From a virus, in the IMG/VR virus record IMGVR_UViG_3300045988_001646, positions 1-43,538 of that record: a DNA stretch of 43,538 nt; one strand, 5' to 3'. Positions 3,588 through 43,538 of the stretch are shown here, one piece after another. Position numbers and translations under genes: made by a program. The first letter of the stretch is position 1, and each line of letters begins with the position of its first letter. Under the pieces are notes generated by a model. It worked only from the letters and a program-made list of their open reading frames with translations, searched no databases and was not told the DNA's origin.

Positions 3588-6500
3588 TTACGGTGCCATC
3601 CACCGGTTTCTAAGTTCTTTCACGGAGTTTACGCCCTGCTCCTGCTTCATAATTGCCTCCACGCCCTGCCGCACGTCCGCCTCCTCATAGCCGTGCGCCA
3701 GCATCTCCCTGTAGATCAGACGCGCCGTTTCGGTGTCCCTTTCTTTCTGCGCCCGGTACAGCAGCTCGCACCACCGTTTCTTGTTTCCAGCGCTCTTATC
3801 CATGCGGTAGATGGCCTTTTCCATCTCAAACATCAGCCGCACATTCCCGGTTTCGCTGGCAATAGTCCGAGCCAAAGACCACACATCACGGCCTGCATTT
3901 GCTACGCTGATGCCGAATACTTTACTAACAGAAGCAATCACCTGTTTCGCGCTGTACGCCATCGTCTTTTGGCCCTCGCCGTTAGCGCTGGCGATCATGG
4001 CTCTGGTCGCTTTTATGATGTCATCAATTACGCTGGCATCCATGCGGTCCACGGTGTAGCCCTGTAGTAACGAGATAATGTCTTTCCCAAAAGGAACACG
4101 CCCTAACAGTGTAATATTCCCTTTTAGGTTTCCTTCCAACGCTATGTTCGTGGTAAGTTCCCAACCATCTTTCTCATCACCGGTCACACCAGTAAAGGCT
4201 TCCAGAACGCGCTCTAAGTATTTTTTCTTCTTGTCGTCGTCCCGCAGGCCGTCCACGATGGACTGTGCCAGCGCGTTCACCACGTCCGTCACCAGCAGGG
4301 CGCCTACGGCCCGCTTCAGCTGCTTCAGCGCCTTGCTACGCTTCTGCGGGTTCGTTTCATACACCCATGCGTCGTAGGAACGCATCAGGATATTCAGGCT
4401 TTTCAGCGGCTCACCCATGAAGGACGTGGCCTGCCTAAATAGCATATCTCCATCCCGCATGATCTGCGTCCGCTGCATAATGCCGTCCACCACCTGCGTC
4501 TGGTCGATCACGTCCGTAAACACCTCCGCCACCTGCTGATAGTAAGCATCGCTGCCAACCTCCAGGCTTGTGTTTGCCGCCACCTGCCATTCGCAAGCGT
4601 TCCAGATCTTGCCCCACGTCATCGCATCGGCCTTCCCGGCCAGTGACATACTCTTGTCGCTCAGCCACGTCATAAAGCTGCCGTCCGTGCCGTATACCTC
4701 CCGTGCAATGGTGTACCGGCTGCCCTGGTCAAAGCCGGACGTGTCCTTGATGCCCGCAATGGGCGCCCACTTTCGTGCCTTGTCCCATCCGTTGCCTTTG
4801 GTCACGCCGTTGCCCAGGCCCTTCACCATGTTTTCCGGGTCCAGCACCACTGCCGCCCGGAAGTACGCCGTGGGCTGCTGGATGACCACGCGCCAATTCG
4901 CGCCAACAGCCGCACCCTTGTAACTCCCAACATACTTTTCAACCACTCTTGCAGTGGCCAATCCGCTTTTTTTCTGGCCGTTCTGCACGTCCCGCATCAG
5001 GTTCTGCCAATACTTCTGCGCCGCGTCGCCGTACACACTTGACAGCACCTGCCGCACGTTCTTCCCGGTCAGATTGCCCATGCTGTCCCGGTACCGGTAG
5101 TTGTACAGCCGGTTAATGTCCTCCATCGGGGCCAGCAGCGTGGCGTACTTGATCATGTCGCTGGCGTTCTGCGCAAACACGTCGTACACGCCGCCGATGT
5201 CCAGCGCGTTGCTGGCGTTGGGCGTCAGGGCCTTTGCGCTGCCCATATTCTTGATCTCTCTGGCGATGTCCGGTCCCTTCTCCACGCTGGATGCCGTGGC
5301 CTCCTTCGCCGTCTTGATGGGCCAGTAATGCGTTTCCATGAACTTGCGGTAGCCGTACACCGCCATGCTGGCCTCGTTGCCCCACTCCGCCAGTTTCGTG
5401 CTGGCCAGCTTCTGCAACCCGTCTGCCACCTTGATCTGCTCCGGTGTCAGCACAGAGGTGATGGCCTTGACGTCCTCCAGCGTCAGCAGAATGTTCTCCG
5501 TCCCGCGGGGGATGGCTTTCAGCTTGCCGTCCCGCTTGATCTCCGGCTGCACGATGCCGCCCACCATCAGGTGGTTCATGGCCTGCTCACCGCGCTTTGC
5601 CAGGTTGTACATGTTCATAATCTGCTCGTTGGTCAGCGTCAGCTCCACGCCACGGCTTGTGGTGAACGTGTGCCGTTCAAAGCGGTTTTTGTACACGTCC
5701 GCATCCAGGAACTTTTTAGCCGCGTCCCGCAGCTCCGTCAGCATCACGTGCTCCCGGTCCTGCGCGTTCCGCAGCGTCCGGTATACCTGCATGCCGCCGT
5801 CGCCGTAGGCGGAGAAGAACGTATACGGGTCCGCCATATCCAGCGAGATCTTCCGGTTCCGCCGCTTCCGGCTCATGCTGCCCATCATAAGGCTGTCCGC
5901 CCACTCGCTGGTCCGTGCGTACTTCTGGTTCGCCAGCGTCCGGTCGTAGCTGGTCAGCGTGGCCTCGATGGCCCGCACCGCGTTCCATACGGTCTCCAAC
6001 TCCGTTACGTTCATGTCGGCAATGCGTTTGTCTCCCAGTTTGGAAAGAGATGCCAACAGCCCGCCGCCCTCCGTCAATGCAGGGTCAACGACCATATCAT
6101 CATCGCGGTCGATTATGTCCTCGTACAGACGTCTTAATTTTCCCGCCTGCATTGTCCGCTTCGTCGGGTCGCCGTCGGCGTTTTTCCGCAGCCGCCCGTT
6201 CTCGTCGTAGCTGTATGCGCTCTCCAGGTTGATGTTCCGCAGCAGATCGGCCACCACCACGCGCAGCTCCTCCGGGATGTGCTTTTTGTCCGTGGGGTGC
6301 AGCAGCTTTTCGGACAAAGGCCCCGTGTGTCTGGCGATCTTGGCACGCATCTCCGCGGCGTACCGCTTCTCCCGGCCCTTCTGTGTCTTTTCGCTGTACT
6401 CTCGGCGCATCCGCTTCACCATGTCCCGGCGCTTTTCCCGCTCCTTTGTCAGCATTTCACGCACCCGGCCCACGGCCTCCTGCTTCTCCAGCTCCCGCCG

Positions 6501-9500
6501 GTCGGCAAAGGTCTTCTTCTGCCGCACCTGGTCAGAGATCATGCCGTCAATGATGTCGTTGGCGATCTCCTGAATGGCTGCGTCACGGTAGCTGTCAAAG
6601 GGGTTTTCATAGATGCTGTCCATGCTGTCCAGCACATCCGCGATCTGCTGCAGCTTGTCCGCCTCGGTATACACGTCGCTGGGGAAATAGCCCTCGCCGA
6701 ACATCTCCGTCATTTCCTCGTACATGGTGTCCACCGGCAAGCCCTCCGACTTGTTCAGCTTCAGCGTTCCCATGTACCGCTTGCGGAACTCGTTGTAGTG
6801 GTCCATCTCCCCGTTGAAAAGGATCTTCTGCCGCTTCAGGTAGTCTTTGATCTCCAGCAGCTCCGCGCCGTGCTCCGTCAGCTCCGTCGTGTTGTCCACG
6901 ATGGCCGTCGCCGCATTTCTGGCGTAGGGCATCAGGTCGGCCATGCTCACGTCTTTCTTCATCACAGCCTTGCCCAGCGCCTCCATGTCGGCCTGAATGT
7001 CGCCGTATTCCACGTCGCTGCCGTACTTGCGTATGGCCTCGCGCCCCAGCTTTTTCACGTCCCGCAGCACTACGGACGGCTCCTTGCTGATGCGCATTTC
7101 GCCCTTCAGCTCCTGCACCCGCTGCTCCAATGCGCGGTTGCGGCTGGCCAGTACCGTGCGCTCCCGTTTCAGGTCCCGCACCTCCTGTTCAATGTCCGCC
7201 GTACTCCGCAGCTGAAATCTGGCTCCCTCTACGCTGTTCACGGCATCCAGTCTGGCTTTTTCATCTCCGCTGGCATATTCGATCATCAGCACACCGGCGT
7301 TTTCCAGTGCTGCCTTTACCTCTGCGCTGGCGTCGTTAGGGATGACCGCCGCCAACACTTCATCAAAACCTACGGCTCTCTGCGGCTTTGCCTCGAAATA
7401 CCCGGTCGGCATATTGGAAATGTCTTCATACAGCTGCAGCACCTTTTCCGCCGTATCCGGTTTGATTTGCAGCGTGGGGTATGTCCGCAGCTCTTTATCA
7501 ATTCCCGCCACAGTCCGTTTTGTACGCATCGTCTCTACAATAGCCGACGCCGCATCGTCCGATGCGATAAACTCATTTCTTGCCGCAGGATCCTTGATCT
7601 CGTTGGTCAACTCCGCAAGGCGTTCAGAATACTTCTGCCGGATAGCGCTGTATTCTTCCTCGGTCATTTTCTGAAGCCGCCCGGAGTCGGCCTTGATCTC
7701 GTCAATAGAGCCGTAATCCTTTGACGCAACACCCCAAATCGCCTGGCCACCAAAGAATGTGTTGGCACCCTTCTGATCGCCTTGCTTCATCGCCTTAACA
7801 ATGTTTTCCAGCGTGATATCATAGTGCGTTGCCGAAAAACTCCTGCGATTGCCGGAAGATGTATAGTAGTCCTTACCGTTGTAAATGCCCTCGTTTTTTA
7901 CAACACCGTCAAACAGATTATCCAGCCATTGCTCGTACTCCTTCTGATTTACCTTGTCGCGGATAGCTTTGTTGGTAGCGTCCCTGTCCACTTCTTCCGT
8001 CACAGTTTCCGTGTTACCGGCCAGATATTTCCGCGTATCCAACATATACCGCATCTTTGCCTCAAAGGTTTCTGCGTTTACCACATCGGCCGCATCCTTT
8101 GCAGGCAGCCCCAGCTTTTCGTAGTATTTTTGCAGTGCGGCGTTCAGCGCTTCGCCGTGTTCCTTGTACCACAGTTTTCTTGCCGCAATAGGCGACTCGC
8201 CGCCCTTTGCGCGAAAATCGTTTACAGTGCTCTCCCCCAATTCGCGGATCAGGAACGATGCCATTTCCTGCTGGTTGTCGCCCATGCGTGTGACTTCGCG
8301 CTTCATTACGTTTTCTACCGCACCCCGCCCGGTATCTTCCAGATAAATGTTCATCACGCGCGGGTCGTCGCGCATAGCTCCGACAACTTTATCTACGCCG
8401 CCCTTCCGGTTCAGCTCGTCCTCCAGCGTGTTTGCCGCAGAATATAAGGGGTCTGCAAAGCTCCTGCCTTTCGACCGCTCCATACGGTAAAACAGGTCGT
8501 GGATTTTCTTGGCGAATTTCTCATTTACCTCATATTCAATTCGCGGGGCAGTAGGTGTCCATGCGTCGTAACCGTACACCTTGTTGCTGCGGAACAGCTG
8601 CGGGTCGATGGTATCCTTGCTGAACACAAACGAAATGTCGCCGTACTCGCCGTGGCCTTCGTCTGCCTTTACGATGGCAATACTCGGCATAGGAAGCCCG
8701 CCAAGCTTTGCGGCATCCAGCAGGTTCTTCTCTGTCAGGTTATGCAGCGCCAGCAGGTTTTTTGTTTCCTCCACAGGCGCTTTCAGCGAAAATTGCGGCT
8801 TGACATTCTCGCCATCGGCGGGTATACTGTTCTTAGACGTAGAAGCCGTGGGCTGTGTGAGCGCGTCCGTACTGGATGTGGCCGCAGTCGGTCCGGTTTC
8901 TGCGTTTGTTTTTTCCGCAAATGTAAACGCAGAACCATCCGGCATAACAATGCGGTGCATATCGTAATGGTTTTTGCTGGTCTCTCTTACTACGACCGCC
9001 ATATTCCCCCGCACCCCGTTTATAACAACAGGCGCTGCGAAAGTAACTGTGCTATATCCACGCCCCTTATGGTCAGCCTCGCGGTAAATTTCTTTTCCGC
9101 GCTTGAGCACATAAGGTAGGGCCGCAAACGCCGCGATTTCTCCGTCGCTCTGCAGATAATTAAGCGCGCTGTTTACATCTTTGCGGCTTACTTCAATTTC
9201 TCCATATCCCTGCCTGTCTACGCGGTTTCCGTATTTCAGCGCTTCCTTTTCCGCCCACGCCCGTTTCTGCTTAATATTCATTTCACTGAAAATTTCAGAA
9301 ACGTTCTTTTGCACTACCGGCTCCGTATCATTCAGCGTTTTACTGGCGTTGGCGATCTGCTGTTTGATGCTGACAACTGTTTTATCGGAAGTGTTTTTCA
9401 GGCTGTATTTTACACCGTCGCCCTCACCGGCGGCGGTTTTTGCTTTCTCCGCCTGCCGCTCCGCCGCGTCAAAGGCCGCCTGCCACTTCTGCGCAATGTC

Positions 9501-11792
9501 CTCCAGCTCTCCGAAGGTCTTGCCGTAGGCATCCATCGCCGCGTTGTCTCTTGCCTTGCCGGTGAACATAGCCTTGACTTTGGCAAGAAATTCCTTCAGC
9601 CCGTCCAGCAGCTTCTGCGCCGCCGTGCGGTTGTCCTTGGCAAACTGTGCGAACAGATCCGTGTCCTCGATCATCCGCCCCGCGAAATCCGCGGCGATCT
9701 CGTCCATCACCTCGTCCTGCGTCAGCGTTACGCCGGCTCTCTCCGCCGCCTCCATGTACCGCTGCACGACCTCCGTTTCCGTGTCCGCGCCGTTCTCCCG
9801 CATGCGGTACTCTATCGCCGCCTGCCGGAACGCCAGGTACTCGTCGGGGGATAGGTCCTGCATCCGGTGGGTGACCTCATGCCCCGCCACCTCATAGATG
9901 GGGTTTGTGCTGTCCGCCGCGATCTGGATCAGGTTTTTCTCCCTGATGTACTGGCCGTTGGCCTGCCCATCCATAATGCTGTCCACGAACTCGATACGCA
10001 CGCCCAGCTTCTTGCCGATGGTGTTCAGCGCCGATGCCGCGCCCTTGTCTTTGGCGATGATGTACCGGCTGTAGGCATTGTCCGCCAGCCCGGCTCCCGC
10101 CGTGGTAGTCACTGCGGACACGTCCGCATTTTCCCGTGCCACCTGCGCTCTTGCGTCCTCCAGCCCCGCGTTGTACGCCGTGTACCGCTGCTCCGGCGTC
10201 AGCATCGCCGCGTACTTGCCCTTGGCCTTTTCCGCCTCAATGCCGTTCAGTCCCGCGTTGTACATGGCGGAGAAGCCTGCGTACACCTCCGCGCCGCTGC
10301 CGCTTGTTTCCCGCACCTGCTGATACGCTCTTTGCCCCGCCTCCATAAAGCCGCCCACGGCTTTCTGTGTGCGTTTCTGCGTCTGGGGGATAGCCGTGGT
10401 ACGCTGTGTCTGCTCCTGCGCTGTCTCGCGGCTTGCAAGGGCAATAATTTCACGTTTAAGCTGGCTGATCGGCTTTTCCGTGTCCAGTTTTACCCCGGTG
10501 CTGGCTTCCAGTGTTTCCACGGCCACCGGGTCCCGTGCAATGGCCGCCGCCTGGTTGCCGGTGATCGTCTCGCCCCTGGTCACCGCCTCCACGGCTTCCG
10601 CCGTCCTGCCGTCCATCTCCGGCGCGGTGTTCTTCCGCACATCCCGGTCATACTTCGTTCTGGCCGCGTTGTATGCTGCGCGGTTGGCAAGGGTGTTCAC
10701 GCCCATCTGCCCGCCGCCCAGAATACCGCCAACTACAGCGCCGCCGGCAAATTCCTCCGCCGCTGCCGCCGGGTCGAAAATGGCGCCGTTGCCGATACCG
10801 ACAAGGGGGTTGTCCCGTCCATAGACGGCGTTCTGCGTGGCGCGTTCGATCACGCCCTGCACCACTTCCTCCTTGCCCTCGTCCAGCATGGTGTCCACCC
10901 ATGCTTTCCATGCGCTGCCGCCGTTCTGCAATTCCCGGGGCAGCGTCTGGATACCGCCGCCCACTTCCACGGCGGCGTTCATAAGTCCGTTGCCGATGGC
11001 GTACACGGATGCGCGGAAATCGTCCGCGCCGTCCGCTTTTGCTTGCTCATAGCCGGGGCCAAATACTTGTGCAAAGGAGAGCTGGAAGTTCGGGTCTTTC
11101 GCCATTGCTCGCATACTGCGGGAAATGGTGTTGACCAACCCGGAGGAAGCCGCCGCGTTTTCCGCCAGTGAGCCTGCCTGTGCCGCCGTGCTGGCGCCGC
11201 CGGTCAACAGCGCCGCAATGGCTTGCGGCACCGCCGCCACCGTCGCCGCACCCAGGTCTTCGAAAACCTGCGCCGCTTTCCCGCCGCGTGCCGTGTTTTC
11301 CGCGTACCGCTGCTGCACGCCCTGCGCCTCCGCGTCAATAGCCCGGTTCCAGCGGTTGAAAAGCCAGTTGCTGGTGTCCGGGTCCCAGTAGCCGTTGGAG
11401 CCCTCCCGGGCAAAATCACCCAGCAGGTTCTCTATCCATGCGCCGGCGGAGCTGCCCACTTTGGCGATCTGTGTCAGGCCCATTTGTCCGGCCTTTGCCA
11501 GCCCCTGCCCAACGTTATATTTCCCCGCCGCACTTGTTGTGTTCCCCGCAGGCACGCTCGGCGTAACCAGCATAGACGTGTCCGGCTTATAGGTGCTGGG
11601 CGCTACATCCGCCGCCGTTCTGCCGCCGGTGCGGATAATGTCGCCGCCCATGCCGGCATCTTCCATTTTGCTGCGAAACTTATCCTGCCACCCACCGCTG
11701 TCTGCATTGCGGTTTGTCCGGCTTGCTGCGGGGATGTCGTTTTCCATCCCCGCAGCTTTCATTTTCTTCTGAAATGTCTGCTTCCAGCCCAT
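3588..11792 (-). CDS. Giant virion-associated polyvalent-type protein with a zincin (HExxH) metallopeptidase motif
   Basis: 2734-aa uninterrupted ORF with an AAGGAGG RBS. Gly/Ala-rich hydrophobic N-terminal region. HEVTH at aa 638-642 (nt 9867-9881). Several distinct globular and coiled-coil segments. Positioned among virion genes. Confidence 0.85.
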   Translation of the reverse strand: MGWKQTFQKKMKAAGMENDIPAASRTNRNADSGGWQDKFRSKMEDAGMGGDIIRTGGRTAADVAPSTYKPDTSMLVTPSVPAGNTTSAAGKYNVGQGLAKAGQMGLTQIAKVGSSAGAWIENLLGDFAREGSNGYWDPDTSNWLFNRWNRAIDAEAQGVQQRYAENTARGGKAAQVFEDLGAATVAAVPQAIAALLTGGASTAAQAGSLAENAAASSGLVNTISRSMRAMAKDPNFQLSFAQVFGPGYEQAKADGADDFRASVYAIGNGLMNAAVEVGGGIQTLPRELQNGGSAWKAWVDTMLDEGKEEVVQGVIERATQNAVYGRDNPLVGIGNGAIFDPAAAAEEFAGGAVVGGILGGGQMGVNTLANRAAYNAARTKYDRDVRKNTAPEMDGRTAEAVEAVTRGETITGNQAAAIARDPVAVETLEASTGVKLDTEKPISQLKREIIALASRETAQEQTQRTTAIPQTQKRTQKAVGGFMEAGQRAYQQVRETSGSGAEVYAGFSAMYNAGLNGIEAEKAKGKYAAMLTPEQRYTAYNAGLEDARAQVARENADVSAVTTTAGAGLADNAYSRYIIAKDKGAASALNTIGKKLGVRIEFVDSIMDGQANGQYIREKNLIQIAADSTNPIYEVAGHEVTHRMQDLSPDEYLAFRQAAIEYRMRENGADTETEVVQRYMEAAERAGVTLTQDEVMDEIAADFAGRMIEDTDLFAQFAKDNRTAAQKLLDGLKEFLAKVKAMFTGKARDNAAMDAYGKTFGELEDIAQKWQAAFDAAERQAEKAKTAAGEGDGVKYSLKNTSDKTVVSIKQQIANASKTLNDTEPVVQKNVSEIFSEMNIKQKRAWAEKEALKYGNRVDRQGYGEIEVSRKDVNSALNYLQSDGEIAAFAALPYVLKRGKEIYREADHKGRGYSTVTFAAPVVINGVRGNMAVVVRETSKNHYDMHRIVMPDGSAFTFAEKTNAETGPTAATSSTDALTQPTASTSKNSIPADGENVKPQFSLKAPVEETKNLLALHNLTEKNLLDAAKLGGLPMPSIAIVKADEGHGEYGDISFVFSKDTIDPQLFRSNKVYGYDAWTPTAPRIEYEVNEKFAKKIHDLFYRMERSKGRSFADPLYSAANTLEDELNRKGGVDKVVGAMRDDPRVMNIYLEDTGRGAVENVMKREVTRMGDNQQEMASFLIRELGESTVNDFRAKGGESPIAARKLWYKEHGEALNAALQKYYEKLGLPAKDAADVVNAETFEAKMRYMLDTRKYLAGNTETVTEEVDRDATNKAIRDKVNQKEYEQWLDNLFDGVVKNEGIYNGKDYYTSSGNRRSFSATHYDITLENIVKAMKQGDQKGANTFFGGQAIWGVASKDYGSIDEIKADSGRLQKMTEEEYSAIRQKYSERLAELTNEIKDPAARNEFIASDDAASAIVETMRTKRTVAGIDKELRTYPTLQIKPDTAEKVLQLYEDISNMPTGYFEAKPQRAVGFDEVLAAVIPNDASAEVKAALENAGVLMIEYASGDEKARLDAVNSVEGARFQLRSTADIEQEVRDLKRERTVLASRNRALEQRVQELKGEMRISKEPSVVLRDVKKLGREAIRKYGSDVEYGDIQADMEALGKAVMKKDVSMADLMPYARNAATAIVDNTTELTEHGAELLEIKDYLKRQKILFNGEMDHYNEFRKRYMGTLKLNKSEGLPVDTMYEEMTEMFGEGYFPSDVYTEADKLQQIADVLDSMDSIYENPFDSYRDAAIQEIANDIIDGMISDQVRQKKTFADRRELEKQEAVGRVREMLTKEREKRRDMVKRMRREYSEKTQKGREKRYAAEMRAKIARHTGPLSEKLLHPTDKKHIPEELRVVVADLLRNINLESAYSYDENGRLRKNADGDPTKRTMQAGKLRRLYEDIIDRDDDMVVDPALTEGGGLLASLSKLGDKRIADMNVTELETVWNAVRAIEATLTSYDRTLANQKYARTSEWADSLMMGSMSRKRRNRKISLDMADPYTFFSAYGDGGMQVYRTLRNAQDREHVMLTELRDAAKKFLDADVYKNRFERHTFTTSRGVELTLTNEQIMNMYNLAKRGEQAMNHLMVGGIVQPEIKRDGKLKAIPRGTENILLTLEDVKAITSVLTPEQIKVADGLQKLASTKLAEWGNEASMAVYGYRKFMETHYWPIKTAKEATASSVEKGPDIAREIKNMGSAKALTPNASNALDIGGVYDVFAQNASDMIKYATLLAPMEDINRLYNYRYRDSMGNLTGKNVRQVLSSVYGDAAQKYWQNLMRDVQNGQKKSGLATARVVEKYVGSYKGAAVGANWRVVIQQPTAYFRAAVVLDPENMVKGLGNGVTKGNGWDKARKWAPIAGIKDTSGFDQGSRYTIAREVYGTDGSFMTWLSDKSMSLAGKADAMTWGKIWNACEWQVAANTSLEVGSDAYYQQVAEVFTDVIDQTQVVDGIMQRTQIMRDGDMLFRQATSFMGEPLKSLNILMRSYDAWVYETNPQKRSKALKQLKRAVGALLVTDVVNALAQSIVDGLRDDDKKKKYLERVLEAFTGVTGDEKDGWELTTNIALEGNLKGNITLLGRVPFGKDIISLLQGYTVDRMDASVIDDIIKATRAMIASANGEGQKTMAYSAKQVIASVSKVFGISVANAGRDVWSLARTIASETGNVRLMFEMEKAIYRMDKSAGNKKRWCELLYRAQKERDTETARLIYREMLAHGYEEADVRQGVEAIMKQEQGVNSVKELRNRWMAP

Positions 11793-16005: not shown

Positions 16006-16308
16006 TTATGCCTTCCGGATCGGCAGCTTTCTGACCTCTTGCATCACCCGGGCGGCGCTGCCGTTTCCGCCCATTTTCTCGTAGGGCGTGTACAAATAGT
16101 CGTTGAGATTTTCGTATTCGTCCTGTGTCACATAGCCCCTTGCCACATACACCATGCCAAGGTGGACAATGCGGTCGTGGGCAAGCCCTACCAGCATCTG
16201 CCGCTCGGCGTTATTTTTTTCCTGCCGCTTCCCTACCAGCGCCCATAGTCCGCCGCTGGTGAGGATTGCCACCGCCAGCGGAAGGACGATCTGCTGTACA
16301 ATCGCCAT
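16006..16308 (-). CDS. Membrane protein adjacent to the holin (function unknown)
   Basis: 100 aa. AAAGGAG RBS. N-terminal TM segment (IVLPLAVAILTSGGLWALV) and a soluble C-terminal domain. Confidence 0.65.
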   Translation of the reverse strand: MAIVQQIVLPLAVAILTSGGLWALVGKRQEKNNAERQMLVGLAHDRIVHLGMVYVARGYVTQDEYENLNDYLYTPYEKMGGNGSAARVMQEVRKLPIRKA

Positions 16309-16343
16309 CGCATCGGCTCCTTTCTCTCTTTAATTCAATGCTG

Positions 16344-17573
16344 TCAACTGCTTCGTGCTGGGCTATGACAAGCGCCTGCTTCTGGCAGATGTCCAATAGC
16401 TCGCCGGCAATTTCCGCCAGGCGCTCCACCAGCTCCTGTGAGTGCACTCGTCCATCCCTCCTTGTCTGGCCAAAAGCCGAATGTCTCCCGGAAAATCCGT
16501 GCCGACGCGCAAATGGCTCGGCGGCTGTTTCCCCTTGACATATGCCCAAAGTAGGCCGCCCATACAGGCCGCACATCCGCGAGAGTCATCTTCCCCGTCT
16601 CCACCATCCGTTGCAGCTTCGGCAGCTTTTTCCTAAATCGTACAGTGGCATCTCTCCCCATGCGCATTTTCACGCCGCCGCTCGGCCTTGTGTGGTAGCG
16701 GCACTTCAAAAACACGGATTTCTCCACAGGGGATATGCCGGTTTTCCCCTCATTGAGCCGTAGGCCGATTTGCTCCGTCGCCGCCCGGATTTTCTCCAGG
16801 CACATTTGCAGGTAAGGCAGCTCATCGTGCATGGCGTAGCCGTCATCGTTGTACCTCCCGTAGCCCTTCAGCCGCAGCTTGTCCCGGCACAGGTGGTCGA
16901 TAGGTGATGCCAGCAGCAGGGCGCATATCTGCGATACTTGGCTTCCCAGCCCCAGCCCCGCCGGGCCAAAATCCCGGATGAAGCGGTTTACTTCCTCGGC
17001 AATACGCTGGTCATGGAATAGCCGGCGGTTGGCTTCAAAAATCGGCGCATGAGGCGCGGTATCGAAAAATTTTCTGAAGTCATACCGCAGCACATACCCA
17101 CCCCGTCTTGCCTGCCGGGAAACCTGTTGTTTATAGCGCCGCATGGCAAAGTCCATGCCCTTGCCGCTCAAAGATGCCGAATTGTCGTAAACGAAGGTCG
17201 CTCGGTAGATCGGCGTCAAGACGAAGTCGCAAAGGCACTTTTGTACCACCCGTTCCGTGATATGCACCGCCCGGATGCGCCTCGCCTTGCCTCGCTCATG
17301 CACCGTAAACTCGTGAAATCCGCGATGCTTGAAGGTCCCGGCTAAAATATCCGTATGTATGTCCGCCACCCTTGTCAGCATATTATCCATCAAATTTTGG
17401 GTGCTGGCTTTCCACCGTACACCTCGGCAGCACTTCTTTGCGGATTTCCACAGGTGTAGAAAACTGAATACCTCCTCGAAATTGCCACAAGCGCGGCTCC
17501 GTTCGCTGGTTCTTTTCTCTCTTTCGGCCCTCCGGCGCTGATACCGCGCCTCCCGCCGCTCCTCGTTGCTCAT
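16344..17573 (-). CDS. DGR reverse transcriptase
   Basis: 409 aa. GGAGG RBS. RT motifs include LGSQVSQ (DGR-type [LIV]GxxxSQ) and YNDD. Sits downstream of the TR. Confidence 0.9.
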   Translation of the reverse strand: MSNEERREARYQRRRAEREKRTSERSRACGNFEEVFSFLHLWKSAKKCCRGVRWKASTQNLMDNMLTRVADIHTDILAGTFKHRGFHEFTVHERGKARRIRAVHITERVVQKCLCDFVLTPIYRATFVYDNSASLSGKGMDFAMRRYKQQVSRQARRGGYVLRYDFRKFFDTAPHAPIFEANRRLFHDQRIAEEVNRFIRDFGPAGLGLGSQVSQICALLLASPIDHLCRDKLRLKGYGRYNDDGYAMHDELPYLQMCLEKIRAATEQIGLRLNEGKTGISPVEKSVFLKCRYHTRPSGGVKMRMGRDATVRFRKKLPKLQRMVETGKMTLADVRPVWAAYFGHMSRGNSRRAICASARIFRETFGFWPDKEGWTSALTGAGGAPGGNCRRAIGHLPEAGACHSPARSS

Positions 17574-17776
17574 TTTTGCGCCTCCGTACAGTCTTATTGT
17601 CGGGTGCGGGTTCTAACTGCGTAGTCGCCGCCATGCAACCGGGTACCGCACATCCCCGGCCATGCACACAAGCGTCCGGCGGCGAGGCATCGGCGGCGAG
17701 TTTAACGGGTCAGGCGCTCCTTCGCTCAAGGCGTCGTTTTCAGCAAACCTGCTTACTAAGTCCTACCTAAGGTAGA

Positions 17777-17901
17777 GCGAATCCGGGGGAAACGCCACGC
17801 AAGTTGCTGGCGTTGTTGTTGTTGAGACTGCCGCTGGTGCTGACATTGTAGAAGTTTCTGGAGTTGCCGGTGTTGGCGTCCCGAAGCCACCAGTACACCG
17901 C
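17777..17901 (-). repeat. DGR template repeat (TR)
   Basis: 125-nt gap-free alignment to 18451-18575. The sense strand contains AAC x4 in tandem plus other AAY codons. 13 of 14 mismatches are at TR adenines. Confidence 0.9.
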
Positions 17902-17954
17902 CCCACTGCCGACACCACCGCCGCACAGATATAGCGCCTGCCCTATATAAAGGG

Positions 17955-18383
17955 CTACGATAGCCCCTTATACCGTTCCCTATCGCCTTTCCGTACCTTT
18001 CCGATTAGCTTTGCCTCCGCGCTGATCAGCTCGCCGTGCTTCTGCATGGCGTGAGGCACCCACTTATACCGCGCCTTCTCGCCCTGCAAAAGCTCTTCAT
18101 ACAAGTCCTCCAAATCATCCGCCAGGTTTTGAAGCGCCACATTGGCCCGCCCCATATAGTCGGCGCGTATCTGCGCCTCATGGGCGTTATGCACATAGGT
18201 GTTGTTGGCTGCCTTTACGCTGTGCAGCACCTCTCGCGCCTCCTCGTAGATGGGGCCCAGCAAAAAGAATTGCAGCCGCTTGGGGCACTTTTTTACCACC
18301 GTCAGGGTGTGCTGCTTCAGCTCCCGGGCCGTCTGTATAAACTGCATAGGTGACTCGCCTCTTTGGCTTTTCGGTACGGACAT
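17955..18383 (-). CDS. avd: Accessory variability determinant (Avd)-like protein
   Basis: 142 aa from the ATG at 18383 (AAAGGAAAGG RBS). Helical, basic. Lies between the target gene and the TR, as in canonical DGRs. Confidence 0.75.
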   Translation of the reverse strand: MSVPKSQRGESPMQFIQTARELKQHTLTVVKKCPKRLQFFLLGPIYEEAREVLHSVKAANNTYVHNAHEAQIRADYMGRANVALQNLADDLEDLYEELLQGEKARYKWVPHAMQKHGELISAEAKLIGKVRKGDRERYKGLS

Positions 18384-18402
18384 GACCTTTCCTTTCTGCC
18401 AC

Positions 18403-18422
18403 CGCCCCATCTAAGGGGCGGA
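18403..18422 (-). promoter_or_regulatory. GC-rich hairpin downstream of VR (candidate DGR target-recognition hairpin)
   Basis: On the minus strand: CCGCCCC-TTAGAT-GGGGCGG. It starts 22 nt after the target-gene stop codon. Confidence 0.5.
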
Positions 18423-18443
18423 TGGCCTTGTGATGATTTTCGA

Positions 18444-19427
18444 TTAAAATGCGAAGCCGGGGGAAACGCCACGCACGTTGCTGGCGTAGTAGCTGCCGAG
18501 ACTGCCGCTGGTGCTGACAAAGTAGAAGCAACCGGAGTCGCCGGTGTTGGCGTCCCGAAGCCACCAGTACACCGCGTTCCCGCTCGCGTTTTTCTTAATA
18601 AACGGGGCACTGCCACCCCTACCATAGAGCCGGTAAGCAACAGCGCCTGTAACAGTCACTCCCGCCTGACTGTGCAGGGCCAGCTTGTCCAGAGTAGGCG
18701 TTGTGCCGAGATTATTTGCCAGCTTCCGCGTCAGCATGACCTCTTGCCACTCTGTCGGGATGGTGGCAAGCATCGCAGAGATCGTGGTATTGCGCATCTC
18801 TGTATTGGCCCAGCCGCCGGAATTTGTGTTGGTGGGGTTCATCCGGGCATCGGCAATAGATAGCACCGTATCCAGCGTCATGCCGCACTTGCCCGTTTTC
18901 GTAGAGCGATATTCGCCCGGGTCCGCCATGTCGTCGGTGTTGAAGCTGATTACCTGCACCGCCCACTCACTGCCGTTAATGGACAAAGGCATAGTGTCCC
19001 CAATGCTGATTTTCCGGCTTTCTGCGCCGCAGTTCAGCCATACGGCATTCGTGGTGTTGTTGATGGAGTTGTTGTTGGAGATAGCTTCTCCGTAAACATG
19101 CATCAGCTCCGGAGTAACACCCTCCAGGCCTTCTTTGTAGGTCACCCCGCCGGTGGGGGCAGTGTTAGCTACGGCGACCACAGGCAAGAAGAAAACCGGA
19201 GGCACAGTGTAGATTTTTGCCGGGCCCACCAGGCCGTCCTTAGAGGCCTGTATGGTCCAGGTGCCTACCTTAGATAGCTTCAGCTCGGCTATCCCTTCCG
19301 CGTCCGCTACAGCGGTTATTGTGGTGCCTGTGGTGGTAGCGGTAACGGTAGCCCCTGCGTCTGTATTCACGATGACCTCGCCGCCCTTGCTACCACCGCC
19401 CCCGCCAATCCTCATAATATTCGCCAT
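18444..19427 (-). CDS. DGR target protein (virion surface/receptor-binding candidate with a C-type-lectin-like variable C-terminus)
   Basis: 327 aa. The C-terminus YWWLRDANTGDSGCFYFVSTSGSLGSYYASNVRGVSPGFAF is encoded by the VR. Follows the tail-fibre gene. Confidence 0.85.
   Translation of the reverse strand: MANIMRIGGGGGSKGGEVIVNTDAGATVTATTTGTTITAVADAEGIAELKLSKVGTWTIQASKDGLVGPAKIYTVPPVFFLPVVAVANTAPTGGVTYKEGLEGVTPELMHVYGEAISNNNSINNTTNAVWLNCGAESRKISIGDTMPLSINGSEWAVQVISFNTDDMADPGEYRSTKTGKCGMTLDTVLSIADARMNPTNTNSGGWANTEMRNTTISAMLATIPTEWQEVMLTRKLANNLGTTPTLDKLALHSQAGVTVTGAVAYRLYGRGGSAPFIKKNASGNAVYWWLRDANTGDSGCFYFVSTSGSLGSYYASNVRGVSPGFAF
18451..18575 (-). repeat. DGR variable repeat (VR)
   Basis: Matches the TR at 111 of 125 positions. 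Lies at the 3' end of the target ORF and ends 4 nt before its stop codon. Confidence 0.9.
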
Positions 19428-19429
19428 GC

Positions 19430-20503
19430 TCAGTCACCTCTCTTTATCACGCGGATAGGCAGGTCAATAGTCGGCTTGTCACCGTAAGCTTTCAGCGTCA
19501 TGGTATTTGCCGCCTGTCCGCCGTCCTGAATGTTTGCGCTCTGCAAGGCTTTCAACTGCTCTGCCGTGATGTTCAACGCAGGCAAGACCTCCTGATTGCT
19601 GGTGGCCGTCACACCGCTTACTGCAAGCGCGTAGCTGTACGGTGCCGCGTCACCTGTCCAGCCTGTGGACAGCAGTGTGGCGGTAACTATGCTTGATTTT
19701 TCGACTTTGGCGTTCAATGCCGTCTGCGTGGCCTCGGAAATGGGCTTTGCAAGGTCGCTGGTGTTGTCCACGTTGCCCAGTCCGACCATTTCCTTGTCGT
19801 AATCTCCCGCCTGCGGTACAACGCTTCCTGCGCGTCCGTTGAAGCTCACCACACCGCCGCCAGCGGCCTGCTGTGCCTGTCCGGCCCAGTATTCCGCGCT
19901 TTTTTCGCTGGCCGCTGCCGCCGCTGCGCTTTTTGCCGCCGCCGTCACAGAATTACCTATGCTTCCGGCTGCCGCCGTGGCGGTCTCCGCACTTTCTGCC
20001 GCGCTCTGCGCCGATGCCGCCGCCTCCGTCGCCGCCTTTCGCGCGTCCACGATGGTGGCAAGCACGTTTTCGATCTGGCTCTGCAGCTGCTCCGCCTGCG
20101 TGGGCGGCACGTCCTGCTCCGTATCCGCACTGGTGTCCCACTTGCTCTCGCCCACGGTGAACCGCCCGTACACCGCCGTGGTGGCCCGTGTCTCTTTTTC
20201 CCCGGCCACCGCAGCGCCCTTGACGCACAGCGTCATTTCACCGGCGTACTTTTTGGCCCCGTTTGGCACCGGCACAAGATACACGCTGGTATCGTCCGCC
20301 TCCAGCATGTCAGCGGTCAGAAGCACCTCTATCGTGGCCTTCCCCAGCGCATCGCGGAACTGCACCATTTTTGTCAGGCCGTCCCACATGCCGGAGAACT
20401 CCATGCGGAGAATAACATCGTTGTGGCTCCCGGCAGCGCCGATCATACACTTGTCGCCGGTGATATATTCGTTCTGGATTTTCAGAGGGATCGTCCTCGT
20501 CAT
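19430..20503 (-). CDS. Tail fibre / receptor-binding protein
   Basis: 357 aa from the ATG at 20503 (AAAGGAG RBS). Ala-rich coiled stretch. VSFNGRAGSVVPQAGDY...LGNVDNTSDLAKPIS motif is typical of phage tail fibres. Confidence 0.7.
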   Translation of the reverse strand: MTRTIPLKIQNEYITGDKCMIGAAGSHNDVILRMEFSGMWDGLTKMVQFRDALGKATIEVLLTADMLEADDTSVYLVPVPNGAKKYAGEMTLCVKGAAVAGEKETRATTAVYGRFTVGESKWDTSADTEQDVPPTQAEQLQSQIENVLATIVDARKAATEAAASAQSAAESAETATAAAGSIGNSVTAAAKSAAAAAASEKSAEYWAGQAQQAAGGGVVSFNGRAGSVVPQAGDYDKEMVGLGNVDNTSDLAKPISEATQTALNAKVEKSSIVTATLLSTGWTGDAAPYSYALAVSGVTATSNQEVLPALNITAEQLKALQSANIQDGGQAANTMTLKAYGDKPTIDLPIRVIKRGD

Positions 20504-43483: not shown

Positions 43484-43538
43484 CCATAATTCACACGCAG
43501 GAGGTCACTGGTTCGAGTCCAGCAGTCTCCACCAAAAA
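43484..43538 (+). repeat. attR core (direct repeat copy 2; displaced 3' fragment of the tmRNA/tRNA-type gene)
   Basis: Identical to 1-55. It is preceded by AT-rich phage DNA, not by RNA-gene sequence. Confidence 0.9.

Follow-up and report, generated by a model that had tools for sequence, protein, structure and literature searches.

A diversity-generating retroelement with a DUF6273 target and an RT-2 spacer RNA in a probable temperate phage of gut Clostridia

Introduction

The diversity-generating retroelement (DGR) of Bordetella phage BPP-1, with the gene order mtd-avd-TR-brt, is the prototype of its kind and the natural reference for the locus described here. In BPP-1, cDNA starts at TR G117 within a GC-rich tract, so that the last 17 nt of TR are left uncopied (PMC6182149), and template and primer form a duplex between TR118-129 and Sp47-56 of the spacer (bioRxiv 10.1101/2023.10.23.563531). 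DGRs targeting DUF6273 proteins in phages of gut Clostridia have also been published already: these are the nd4 and nd12 “tentaclins” (PMC10743442) and the DGRs of Lelie, CP11, Roos, Pioen and Taranis (PMC11792537). The phages carrying them are sipho- or myovirus-like, and the tentaclins have an N-terminal DUF6273 (PMC10743442, PMC11792537). Finally, the RT-2 RNA is listed in Rfam as an sRNA with unassigned function; the work that described it tied only RT-10 to a DGR and speculated on the other motifs (Weinberg et al. 2017, PMC5737381).

Here we describe a cassette of ~3.1 kb from what we call the window, i.e., the whole 43,538-nt stretch of viral DNA that was analysed (IMG/VR record IMGVR_UViG_3300045988_001646). 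We are highly confident that this element is a complete and functional DGR of a temperate phage, hosted by an uncultured Oscillospiraceae-like gut Clostridia bacterium. It is an ordinary example of a known system, and its kind is not new; its interest lies in the completeness of the cassette, in the signs of its activity in nature and in the many natural variants of VR that can be compared.

Organization of the cassette

The main components, all on the minus strand, are as follows:

19430..20503, minus strand: tail-fibre-like gene, directly upstream of the target (phrog_35419 tail fiber, E=1.4e-14)
18444..19427, minus strand: DGR target gene, 327 aa, with an N-terminal Ig-like beta-sandwich and a C-terminal DUF6273
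18451..18575, minus strand: VR, 125 nt, from the repeat alignment and hypervariability among relatives
17955..18383, minus strand: Avd-like accessory gene, 142 aa, pI 9.3, between target and TR
17777..17901, minus strand: TR, 125 nt with 30 adenines, non-coding, from the repeat alignment
17559..17770, minus strand: spacer RNA, Rfam RF03077 (RT-2 RNA), full-length covariance-model match
16344..17573, minus strand: DGR reverse transcriptase (RT), 409 aa, with LGSQVSQ (209-215) and YNDD (241-244)

An earlier note on this DNA had proposed a complete target-avd-TR-RT DGR next to a tail-fibre gene, arranged as in BPP-1. This proposal is upheld and is strengthened by the variation among natural relatives discussed below. 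The gene order is identical to that of BPP-1, including the tail-fibre gene before the cassette and the lysis genes after it, and in both phages the cassette and the structural genes share a strand. Further likenesses are the VR at the extreme C-terminus of the target, adenine-specific substitution, a GC-rich tract at the 3′ ends of TR and VR, beyond which their sequences are no longer the same, a hairpin downstream of VR, and the temperate nature of both phages. In both systems, a structured spacer separates TR from the RT gene (about 200 nt in the window, 140 nt in BPP-1) and can be paired with the TR 3′ end, the TR itself being 125 nt long in the window and 134 nt in BPP-1. The bRT of BPP-1 is also the closest solved relative of the window RT (24% identity, E=4e-21). 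Unlike BPP-1, whose target has the Mtd fold, the window has an Ig-like plus DUF6273 target with no sequence or profile similarity to Mtd, an Avd-like protein with no detectable similarity to bAvd (128 aa, pI 9.6), an RF03077 (RT-2) spacer instead of RF03022 (Phage_DGR), YNDD instead of YMDD, and a Gram-positive gut anaerobe as the host.

With the DUF6273-targeting DGRs of gut Oscillospiraceae/Faecalibacterium phages, the window shares the target family, the position of VR at the DUF6273 C-terminus, the ecosystem and the host class. The RTs of these phages are the nearest annotated phage relatives of the window RT (27-38% identity), and their targets show 26-32% similarity to its DUF6273 domain. 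However, the window phage differs from them in its small, 327-aa target with one N-terminal Ig-like domain and in an architecture that includes a P22-type portal and a giant polyvalent protein.

A repeat search of the window returned a single 125-nt direct repeat (17777-17901 and 18451-18575, 89% identity). Since each repeat end occurs exactly twice in the 43.5 kb, where shuffles expect 0, the window contains only one VR. Realignment exactly reproduced the ungapped 125-nt match of TR and VR on the minus strand reported before, with 14 mismatches, 13 of them at TR adenines rather than spread over all four TR bases (hypergeometric P=9.4e-9 for 30 A in 125 nt), plus one T>G at position 100. Six AAC codons are altered, together with AAT>TTT, AGA>GGT and GGA>GGC, and every entry of the earlier list of codon changes was correct. 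Of the 30 adenines in TR, which includes eight AAC codons and one AAT, 28 occupy the first or second codon position. VR lies in frame and forms the final 41 codons of the 327-aa ORF 18444-19427(-) and of its DUF6273 domain; the extreme C-terminal placement and the C-terminal peptide quoted in the earlier note were thus confirmed.

The target protein and its role

The Ig-like beta-sandwich of the target spans about residues 15-78, and the protein has a CarboxypepD_reg-like Pfam match with E=5e-4. Pfam assigns residues 199-325 to DUF6273 (PF19789) at 26.8 bits against a cut-off of 23.5 (E=5.5e-6), and nearly all target homologues carry the PF19789 annotation. AF2 models reached a pLDDT of 91.1 for the full target and 95.6 for the C-terminal domain alone; the latter was modelled separately, the Foldseek search with the full-length model having been dominated by Ig-like adhesins. 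For the C-terminal model, the sole significant PDB match in Foldseek was 9qa6, the DUF6273 domain at the N-terminus of an IgA peptidase; matches to C-type-lectin-like domains all fell below threshold. The C-type-lectin character that had been suggested for the target is weakly supported by the models: lectin-like folds do appear, but the significant match is to DUF6273. Profile comparison with BPP-1 Mtd (hhalign) gave no similarity, phmmer against PDB sequences returned nothing, and no match to Mtd, TvpA or FGE was obtained with hhalign against Mtd or with Foldseek. In BFVD, many DUF6273 phage proteins match the target structure.

Judged by gene position alone, the target is a putative receptor-binding or tail protein. 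The gene directly upstream, 357 aa long as called in the related locus L001, matches several minor-tail families (PHROG) besides its tail-fibre family. An alternative accepts the DGR as real and takes the diversified protein for a capsid-decoration or adhesion protein (Hoc-like or “tentaclin”-like), whose ligands would be mucus, glycans or environmental, so that diversification would tune adherence and not host range. The small Ig-like/CarboxypepD_reg-like beta-sandwich at the N-terminus fits such a role, and so does the proximity of the major capsid gene, just two genes before the target; proteins combining DUF6273 and Ig-like domains have been treated as Hoc-like (PMC10743442), and the only solved DUF6273 domain comes from a secreted bacterial IgA peptidase. 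The VR tail also matches a PHROG annotated as “Hoc-like head decoration”, but this match is limited to the 46 VR-like residues. Moreover, the target nearly abuts the tail-fibre-like gene (stop at 19430, start at 19427), an arrangement also seen for mtd and the tail fibre of BPP-1, and its structural neighbours in BFVD include proteins with tail-collar fibre and receptor-binding protein annotations. We regard the capsid or adhesion role as rather unlikely, though deserving of attention, and keep to the putative receptor-binding or tail protein.

Natural variation and the reverse transcriptase

When 14 independent related loci are pooled, substitutions affect 178 of 366 A sites (48.6%), compared with 13 of 1,370 non-A sites (0.95%). 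The A-specific pattern recurs in 56 of 71 loci of the wider clade, at 46% versus 0.21% for non-A. The comparison was made between samples and strains, and it revealed VR variability mainly at the A-templated sites, where the earlier note had expected it: TRs are identical within a lineage, whereas VRs differ. The window, L001 and L002 have the same TR, with one VR shared by L001 and L002 and a different one in the window. At the protein level, the differences among 17 close variants of the target are nearly confined to residues 287-317, at codons in which TR has an A, and the 97%-identity protein cluster of the target comprises 36 distinct sequences. By these patterns among natural sequences, the DGR is evidently active in nature.

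The 409-aa RT with LGSQVSQ and YNDD was confirmed in ORF 16344-17573(-). It matches phrog_1423 with E=4e-69, and its best PDB match is BPP-1 bRT 8ub7 (E=1.1e-18), ranked above group II (9e-9) and retron RTs. LGSQVSQ aligns with IGSLTSQ of bRT, the catalytic residues D165, D243 and D244 are invariant throughout the RT clade, and the annotated phage matches all come from DGR-bearing phages. PADLOC and NCBIfam gave generic RT matches only. The window RT has YNDD where its clade has YMDD; the spectrum of A-substitutions in YNDD and YMDD lineages showed no significant difference (chi-square p=0.27), and this catalytic-motif variant is compatible with adenine mutagenesis.

One might still suppose that the cassette is a relic and that its mismatches record past activity, with YNDD or the non-A mutation in VR as marks of decay. 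YNDD does depart from the clade consensus, a non-templated T>G is present in the window's VR, and non-A mismatches are more frequent in YNDD lineages (0.95% vs 0.21%). Yet the window and L001 are 100% identical in RT and TR while their VRs differ, the cassette is present in each of the 16 YNDD loci, with a distinct A-templated VR in 15, and the 36 sequences of the protein cluster point the same way; in addition, the RT, Avd, RT-2 RNA, IMH and hairpin have each been conserved in intact form. A relic is, in our opinion, very improbable, and we continue to read the cassette as functional. As for an RT from some other retroelement (retron, group II intron or defence-associated RT) beside an ordinary 125-nt duplication, the weak NCBIfam/PADLOC matches to group II, Drt, retron and UG models lie far under the family cut-offs (e.g., 56 vs 300 bits for the group II model), bRT is the best structural relative, neither intron RNA domains nor retron msr/msd were found, RT-2 between TR and RT being the sole Rfam match, and the adenine-specific pattern of the aligned repeats (P=9e-9, and over 70 loci) already refutes this practically negligible option.

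The Avd-like protein is less clear-cut. The ORF encodes 151 aa if read from its first ATG, or 142 aa from a conserved MSVPKS start, and its product matches phrog_3206, “Avd protein of DGR”, with E=1.9e-6. The family has 1,315 representatives; among 63 members, two match the Pfam bAvd-like family PF22296 and four match 23S_rRNA_IVP (PF05635), while the window protein itself gave no match in Pfam or NCBIfam. Profiles of 11 and 63 sequences detected no similarity to BPP-1 Avd in hhalign (probability 0.3), and a PDB profile search with the family returned no Avd, just spurious matches to uS15 and designed helices. In size, charge and position, the 142-aa protein of the earlier note resembles bAvd, and together with the weak profile matches this makes it a candidate Avd.

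The 3′ end of the repeats and the spacer RNA

The features relevant for homing and priming are the following:

18451..18470, minus strand: IMH-like 3′ end of VR, comprising GGCGTTTCCCCCGG (18457-18470), a fixed C at 18456, then TTCGC
17782..17782, minus strand: TR A120, conserved adenine just 5′ of helix P0, fixed as C in VR
18398..18426, minus strand: GC-rich hairpin 25 nt downstream of VR, with a 4+7 bp stem and a 6-nt loop
17775..17781, minus strand: helix P0 5′ strand, TR 121-125 plus spacer nt 1-2, UUCGCUC
17721..17727, minus strand: helix P0 3′ strand, spacer nt 50-56, GAGCGAA, with a conserved GGAG next

The A>C change at position 120 (GGA>GGC) is shared by 15 of 16 close loci, and in the wider RT clade the same TR-A/VR-C difference recurs at 21 of 22 distinct junctions. 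We therefore count it as a fixed IMH/IMH*-type difference and not as adenine mutagenesis, so that of the 13 adenine mismatches listed earlier, all of which do lie on TR adenines, 12 are mutagenic. Among close loci, A-templated variation is absent 3′ of about position 104, which means that information transfer reaches its 3′ limit somewhere between TR positions 105 and 119; because of this limit, TR A120 is not copied into VR in 15 of the 16. TR and VR diverge 5 nt past the fixed difference. The T>G at position 100, which the earlier note had taken for the IMH/IMH* difference, does not qualify: all 16 close relatives have Leu there, like TR, and the change is thus sporadic and confined to the window's VR. 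The GC-rich tract GGCGTTTCCCCCGG is IMH-like and presumably serves homing. The hairpin follows the target stop codon and precedes the avd RBS, folds as DNA with -14.6 kcal/mol (z=-2.9), and a CCGCCCC/GGGGCGG hairpin occupies the same site across most of the clade.

The spacer matches RF03077 over model positions 1-222 of 222 and scores 111.7 bits (E=2.8e-25), the gathering score being 40. The match extends 15 nt into the RT ORF, and the 3′ closing helix contains the RT Shine-Dalgarno; sequestering it might couple RNP assembly to RT translation. As in the family definition, the RNA lies upstream of an RT gene; unlike it, RT-2 is here directly 3′ of an active TR, an arrangement found in each of the 24 clade loci tested, and an extra 5′ helix, P0, absent from the Rfam model, joins it to the TR 3′ end. 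RF03022 gave no match in the window, whereas the BPP-1 control scored 104.7 bits at the equivalent site, and the window spacer is an analogue of RF03022 in position, and probably in function, but not a member.

In the covariation test for P0, 89% of cells were paired and both partners had changed in 6 of 8 pairs, with about six independent sequence types and the helix derived from the same sequences that were used for the test. By analogy, P0 would resemble the template-primer duplex of BPP-1, with spacer A56 (17721) as the predicted priming nucleotide. It is tempting to suppose that RT-2 is the cis-priming spacer RNA of a large gut-phage DGR clade, and that P0, whose 3′ strand ends at a conserved A/G followed by GGAG, is the template-primer duplex setting the cDNA start at TR A120; we put this forward tentatively, its chances being somewhat short of even. 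The fixed TR-A/VR-C difference is consistent with the cDNA start at TR G117 in BPP-1 (PMC6182149). If the supposition is true, P0 priming accounts for the clade-wide TR-A/VR-C asymmetry, and the cis-priming of BPP-1 extends to another family of spacer RNAs, for which no resemblance to that of BPP-1 was detected in sequence or model; the Rfam model and the Avd sequence family both differ. RT-2, an Rfam family without function, would gain a concrete role and genomic context, and a DGR clade abundant in the human gut would acquire a testable prediction of the priming duplex and of the cDNA start. Other pairings were considered and rejected: long-range TR:spacer and upstream:spacer duplexes (a “cPRT Stop” analogue) were noisy in RNAduplex and inconsistent between lineages, and pairing of the conserved spacer motif CCGGACGC with the TR GC-tract had no consistent register. 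The fold of the whole avd-TR-spacer RNA was no more stable than that of shuffles (z=-0.05).

The overall scenario might be as follows. The transcript of avd, TR and the RT-2 spacer would fold, the TR 3′ end pairing with spacer nt 50-56 as the covariation suggests; the RT, presumably together with the basic Avd-like protein, would prime cDNA in cis near TR position 120 and copy TR, misincorporating at about half of the adenines, in line with the substitution pattern. The cDNA would then replace VR, with the IMH-like, GC-rich 3′ end and the hairpin beyond it as guides. Up to about 20 surface residues of the C-terminal DUF6273 domain would be recoded in the 327-aa protein, a presumed virion protein whose gene adjoins the tail fibre, and this probably alters which cell-surface ligand the phage binds.

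The phage and its host

A nucleotide search found no close relative of the phage among deposited phages, and its portal shows at most 49% identity, to unannotated faecal contigs only. The “short-tailed” type suggested earlier is plausible. On the coding strand of the window, a scan for sigma-70 promoters gave nothing beyond chance expectation; terminator-like sites were at background level, and ARAGORN detected no complete tRNA at the att-like repeat. A genome scan with the RT gave no relative among GTDB representative genomes; we read the host instead from the genes flanking integrated copies. In agreement with the earlier idea of a Clostridia prophage, an integrase, circular junctions and integrated copies all point to a temperate lifestyle. 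Oscillospiraceae or Clostridiales MAGs are the nearest genomes, and the integrated copies adjoin a gene identical to one of Firmicutes bacterium CAG:176.

Architecture of the element and its repeat pair

The window holds a complete, naturally active diversity-generating retroelement (DGR) of a temperate gut Clostridia phage, a system of the same kind as that of BPP-1 and as the published DUF6273-targeting DGRs of gut phages. The earlier note had proposed, from the sequence alone, a complete target-avd-TR-RT element next to a tail-fibre gene in what looked like a Clostridia prophage, and this is borne out by the repeat, the reverse transcriptase (RT), the variable regions of relatives and an integrase. 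We regard four points as modestly new: the assignment of RT-2 RNA to this DGR clade, a covarying helix between the 3' end of the template region (TR) and the spacer, an asymmetry of TR-A and VR-C across the clade, and a YNDD variant of the RT. The minus strand of 16200-19600 was inspected and its ORFs were listed; the main features are as follows.

Features of the element in the window
18444-19427, minus: target, 327-aa ORF
18451-18575, minus: variable region (VR)
17955-18383, minus: Avd-like protein, 142 aa, pI 9.3 (bAvd 9.6)
17777-17901, minus: TR
17781-17775, minus: helix P0, 5' strand; last five TR bases and two spacer bases, UUCGCUC, immediately 5' of the Rfam model
17727-17721, minus: helix P0, 3' strand; spacer nt 50-56, GAGCGAA, with the conserved GGAG next
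16344-17573, minus: RT, 409 aa

A repeat search returned a single long direct repeat in the window, formed by TR and VR (125 nt, 89% identity). Realignment of the minus-strand copies gave no gaps and 14 mismatches, 13 of them at TR adenines (30 A in 125 nt; hypergeometric P=9.4e-9), just as the earlier note had described, and all of the codon changes it listed are correct. The upstream copy, VR, supplies the final 41 codons of the target ORF in frame, and 28 of the 30 TR adenines occupy codon positions 1 or 2. Neither constant end of the repeat has a third copy in the window, which leaves a single VR.

The 13 differences at TR adenines are not all of one kind. Twelve are true mutagenic differences, while position 120 (TR GGA, VR GGC) is a recurrent A>C at a fixed site, which 15 of 16 close loci share, as do 21 of 22 distinct junction sequences, YMDD lineages included. 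Since this is a synonymous Gly site, the constraint acts on nucleic acid. In one close relative only, the locus L012, VR position 120 is A, perhaps because information transfer from TR ran unusually far, as a rare event, or because the site reverted by a point mutation. The remaining mismatch, T>G at position 100, had been taken for an IMH/IMH* difference; it proved sporadic, the resulting L318V being unique to the window among 17 aligned target members. T>G is the commonest of the rare non-adenine changes in these elements, both in the related loci and in the wider clade. No A-templated variation is seen in the related loci 3' of about position 104, which places the 3' boundary of information transfer within the GC-rich tract GGCGTTTCCCCCGG. 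Such a boundary agrees with BPP-1, where the cDNA starts at TR G117, within a GC-rich segment, leaving the final 17 nt of TR uncopied (PMC6182149).

Variation among natural relatives

The 97%-identity cluster of the target comprises 36 distinct sequences, and in the 17-member alignment near-identical sequences vary chiefly within residues 287-317, and there at codons with TR adenines. In fifteen related loci with RTs 71-100% identical to that of the window, TR and VR are spaced alike (671-674 nt) and the mismatches are again adenine-specific. TR is identical in the window and in two of these relatives, L001 and L002, which have one VR in common from which the window's VR differs; it is likewise identical across ten loci of a second lineage, whose ten VRs are all different. 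Pooled over the related loci, substitutions affect 178 of 366 A sites versus 13 of 1,370 non-A sites, and the same pattern is found in 56 of 71 loci of the wider clade (about 50% RT identity; 46% of A versus 0.2% of non-A). The earlier note had staked its reading on mismatches and VR variability at A-templated sites, and what was found, in a comparison across samples and strains, favours an active DGR.

We would also like to comment on the relative L008 (IMGVR_UViG_3300045988_001354; TR at ~3632-3757), whose TR has VR-like bases at 10 adenine positions and differs from its own VR at 3 sites only, the canonical TR being kept in all sibling loci. This TR is the product of either VR-to-TR gene conversion or an assembly chimera of the two repeats; in the former case, further diversification would be crippled.

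Reverse transcriptase and Avd-like protein

The RT matches RVT_1 of Pfam and phrog_1423 'Reverse transcriptase' (4e-69). Its closest solved relative is bRT of BPP-1 (8ub7, E=1.1e-18); group II intron RTs (9e-9) and retron-type RTs (3e-3) score less well. Direct BLASTP against the brt product of BPP-1 yields 24% identity (E=4e-21). Against the group II, Drt and retron models of NCBIfam and PADLOC, the RT scores far below the family thresholds. Its relatives in deposited phages are RTs of DGR-bearing phages, namely Roseburia phage Shimadzu, Faecalibacterium phages Pioen, Roos, Taranis and Lelie, and nd4 and nd12.

Across 30 aligned clade members the catalytic Asp residues never change. In the window and in each of the 16 loci whose RT is 71-100% identical, residues 241-244 (16840-16851, minus strand) are YNDD; in 27 of 30 RTs of the wider clade the motif is YMDD. 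The A-substitution spectrum does not differ between YNDD and YMDD lineages (p=0.27), whereas non-adenine mismatches, mostly T>G, amount to 0.95% in YNDD versus 0.21% in other lineages (Fisher p=4.5e-4, over loci that are not independent).

The window's RT has 409 aa versus 382 aa in most homologues. Its last ~27 residues (…GAGGAPGGNCRRAIGHLPEAGACHSPARSS) are of low complexity, and an alternative frame across these bases (16344-16480, minus strand) gives what reads as a helical peptide, SQELVERLAEIAGELLDICQKQALVIAQHEAVDSIELKRE. This stretch may represent a small overlapping gene or else a tail gained by read-through. The extension is shared beyond the window, a 72%-identical lineage aligning through residue 406.

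We accept the 142-aa protein as a candidate Avd-equivalent on its position, size, charge and weak profile links. It matches phrog_3206 'Avd protein of DGR' weakly (1.9e-6) and nothing in Pfam or NCBIfam; within its family of 1,315 representatives, 2 of 63 members tested reach Pfam bAvd-like and 4 of 63 reach 23S_rRNA_IVP. Similarity to BPP-1 Avd went undetected even by a 63-sequence profile.

Target protein

Residues 199-325 of the target match DUF6273 above the Pfam gathering score, and the N-terminus has a weak CarboxypepD_reg-like match. Confident AlphaFold2 models (whole target, pLDDT 91.1; residues 85-327, pLDDT 95.6 and pTM 0.92) predict a beta-sandwich at the N-terminus and, C-terminally, a domain of mixed alpha/beta structure. 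The sole significant PDB fold match is the N-terminal DUF6273 domain of the Thomasclavelia ramosa IgA peptidase (9qa6, E=2e-4). For the C-type-lectin fold suggested earlier, support is weak: about half of the sub-threshold matches are C-type lectin-like domains with short alignments, but none is significant, Mtd, TvpA and FGE are absent from the PDB matches, and hhalign against Mtd was negative. BFVD contains many DUF6273 proteins of uncultured phages, some labelled tail-collar fibre or receptor-binding protein.

RNA elements around the template

Over the whole window Rfam returns one family, RF03077 'RT-2 RNA', at 17559-17770 on the minus strand, full length, with 111.7 bits versus a gathering score of 40. 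In 24 of 24 loci tested of the RT clade, this RNA occupies the TR-RT spacer. No function is listed for this family in Rfam.

RT-2 RNA in related loci
L001: 11658-11869
L003: 3769-4016
L009: 3737-3947
Diverse clade loci (L113-L183): 20 of 20

In the BPP-1 control the spacer gives a different Rfam family, RF03022 'Phage_DGR' (formerly RT-10). Weinberg et al. assigned only RT-10 to DGRs, the service of other RT motifs to DGRs being speculation (PMC5737381), and our full-text literature search found no paper that ties RT-2 to DGRs. Because the 3' strand of the RT-2 closing helix (ACGGAGGCG) includes the Shine-Dalgarno sequence of the RT, there are hints that RNA folding is coupled to RT translation.

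Helix P0 joins the TR 3' end to the spacer. Its pairing is kept in 89% of cells versus 31-56% with the partner strand slid (about six distinct helix types), 6 of 8 pairs are changed on both sides, and the covariation score is 0.66 versus 0.06-0.27, in a test that draws on few independent sequences and on a structure derived from those same sequences. The BPP-1 template-primer duplex, TR118-129:Sp47-56 with priming nucleotide Sp A56 (bioRxiv 10.1101/2023.10.23.563531), parallels it in geometry: a conserved TR adenine precedes the duplex, and A56 is the last base of the spacer strand. By this analogy, P0 may be the priming duplex.

A GC-rich hairpin (18398-18426, z=-2.9) lies 25 nt downstream of VR; its conservation, which extends over most of the clade, is mainly one of sequence. 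The hairpin is absent from L118, a clade locus (IMGVR_UViG_3300045988_028085; TR at ~2207-2337) with a shorter TR-VR spacing of 603 nt, U:A in place of C:G as the first P0 pair, and the only junction with TR GGC, not GGA, at the conserved adenine.

Phage and host

The structural genes are all on the minus strand.

Gene order of the phage
Up to the DGR: terminase, P22-type portal, scaffold-like protein, major capsid, 131-aa protein, tail-fibre-like gene, DGR
After the DGR: 100-aa protein, holin, amidase endolysin, internal-virion-protein-like gene, 2,734-aa LPD3/PBECR5 polyvalent protein

Among the window's phage genes, none was recognised as encoding a tail tube, sheath or tape-measure protein; this fits a podovirus, as the 'short-tailed' of the earlier note implied, and falls short of proof. 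The 2,734-aa ORF (3588-11792, minus strand), downstream of the internal-virion-protein-like gene, matches phrog_22978, its LPD3 and PBECR5 domains being seen in relatives. Giant 'polyvalent' proteins of this sort are thought to be injected along with phage or plasmid DNA.

Genes for a tyrosine integrase and for regulators of the Cro/CI type lie at the opposite end of the phage genome. The window begins and ends with an exact 55-nt direct repeat (1-55 and 43484-43538) that contains the tRNA T-arm-like GGTTCGAGTCC; this repeat is single-copy at the circular junctions of three related loci (L018-L020) and at phage-host junctions beside the integrase in two more (L022, L023). The repeat is probably the att core, and the contig a circular k=55 assembly. 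ARAGORN found no complete tRNA in the sequences around it. The window phage has no close relative among deposited phages. As for the host, a flanking gene is identical to one of 'Firmicutes bacterium CAG:176', and the nearest GTDB genomes (85-89%) are Oscillospiraceae or Clostridiales MAGs.
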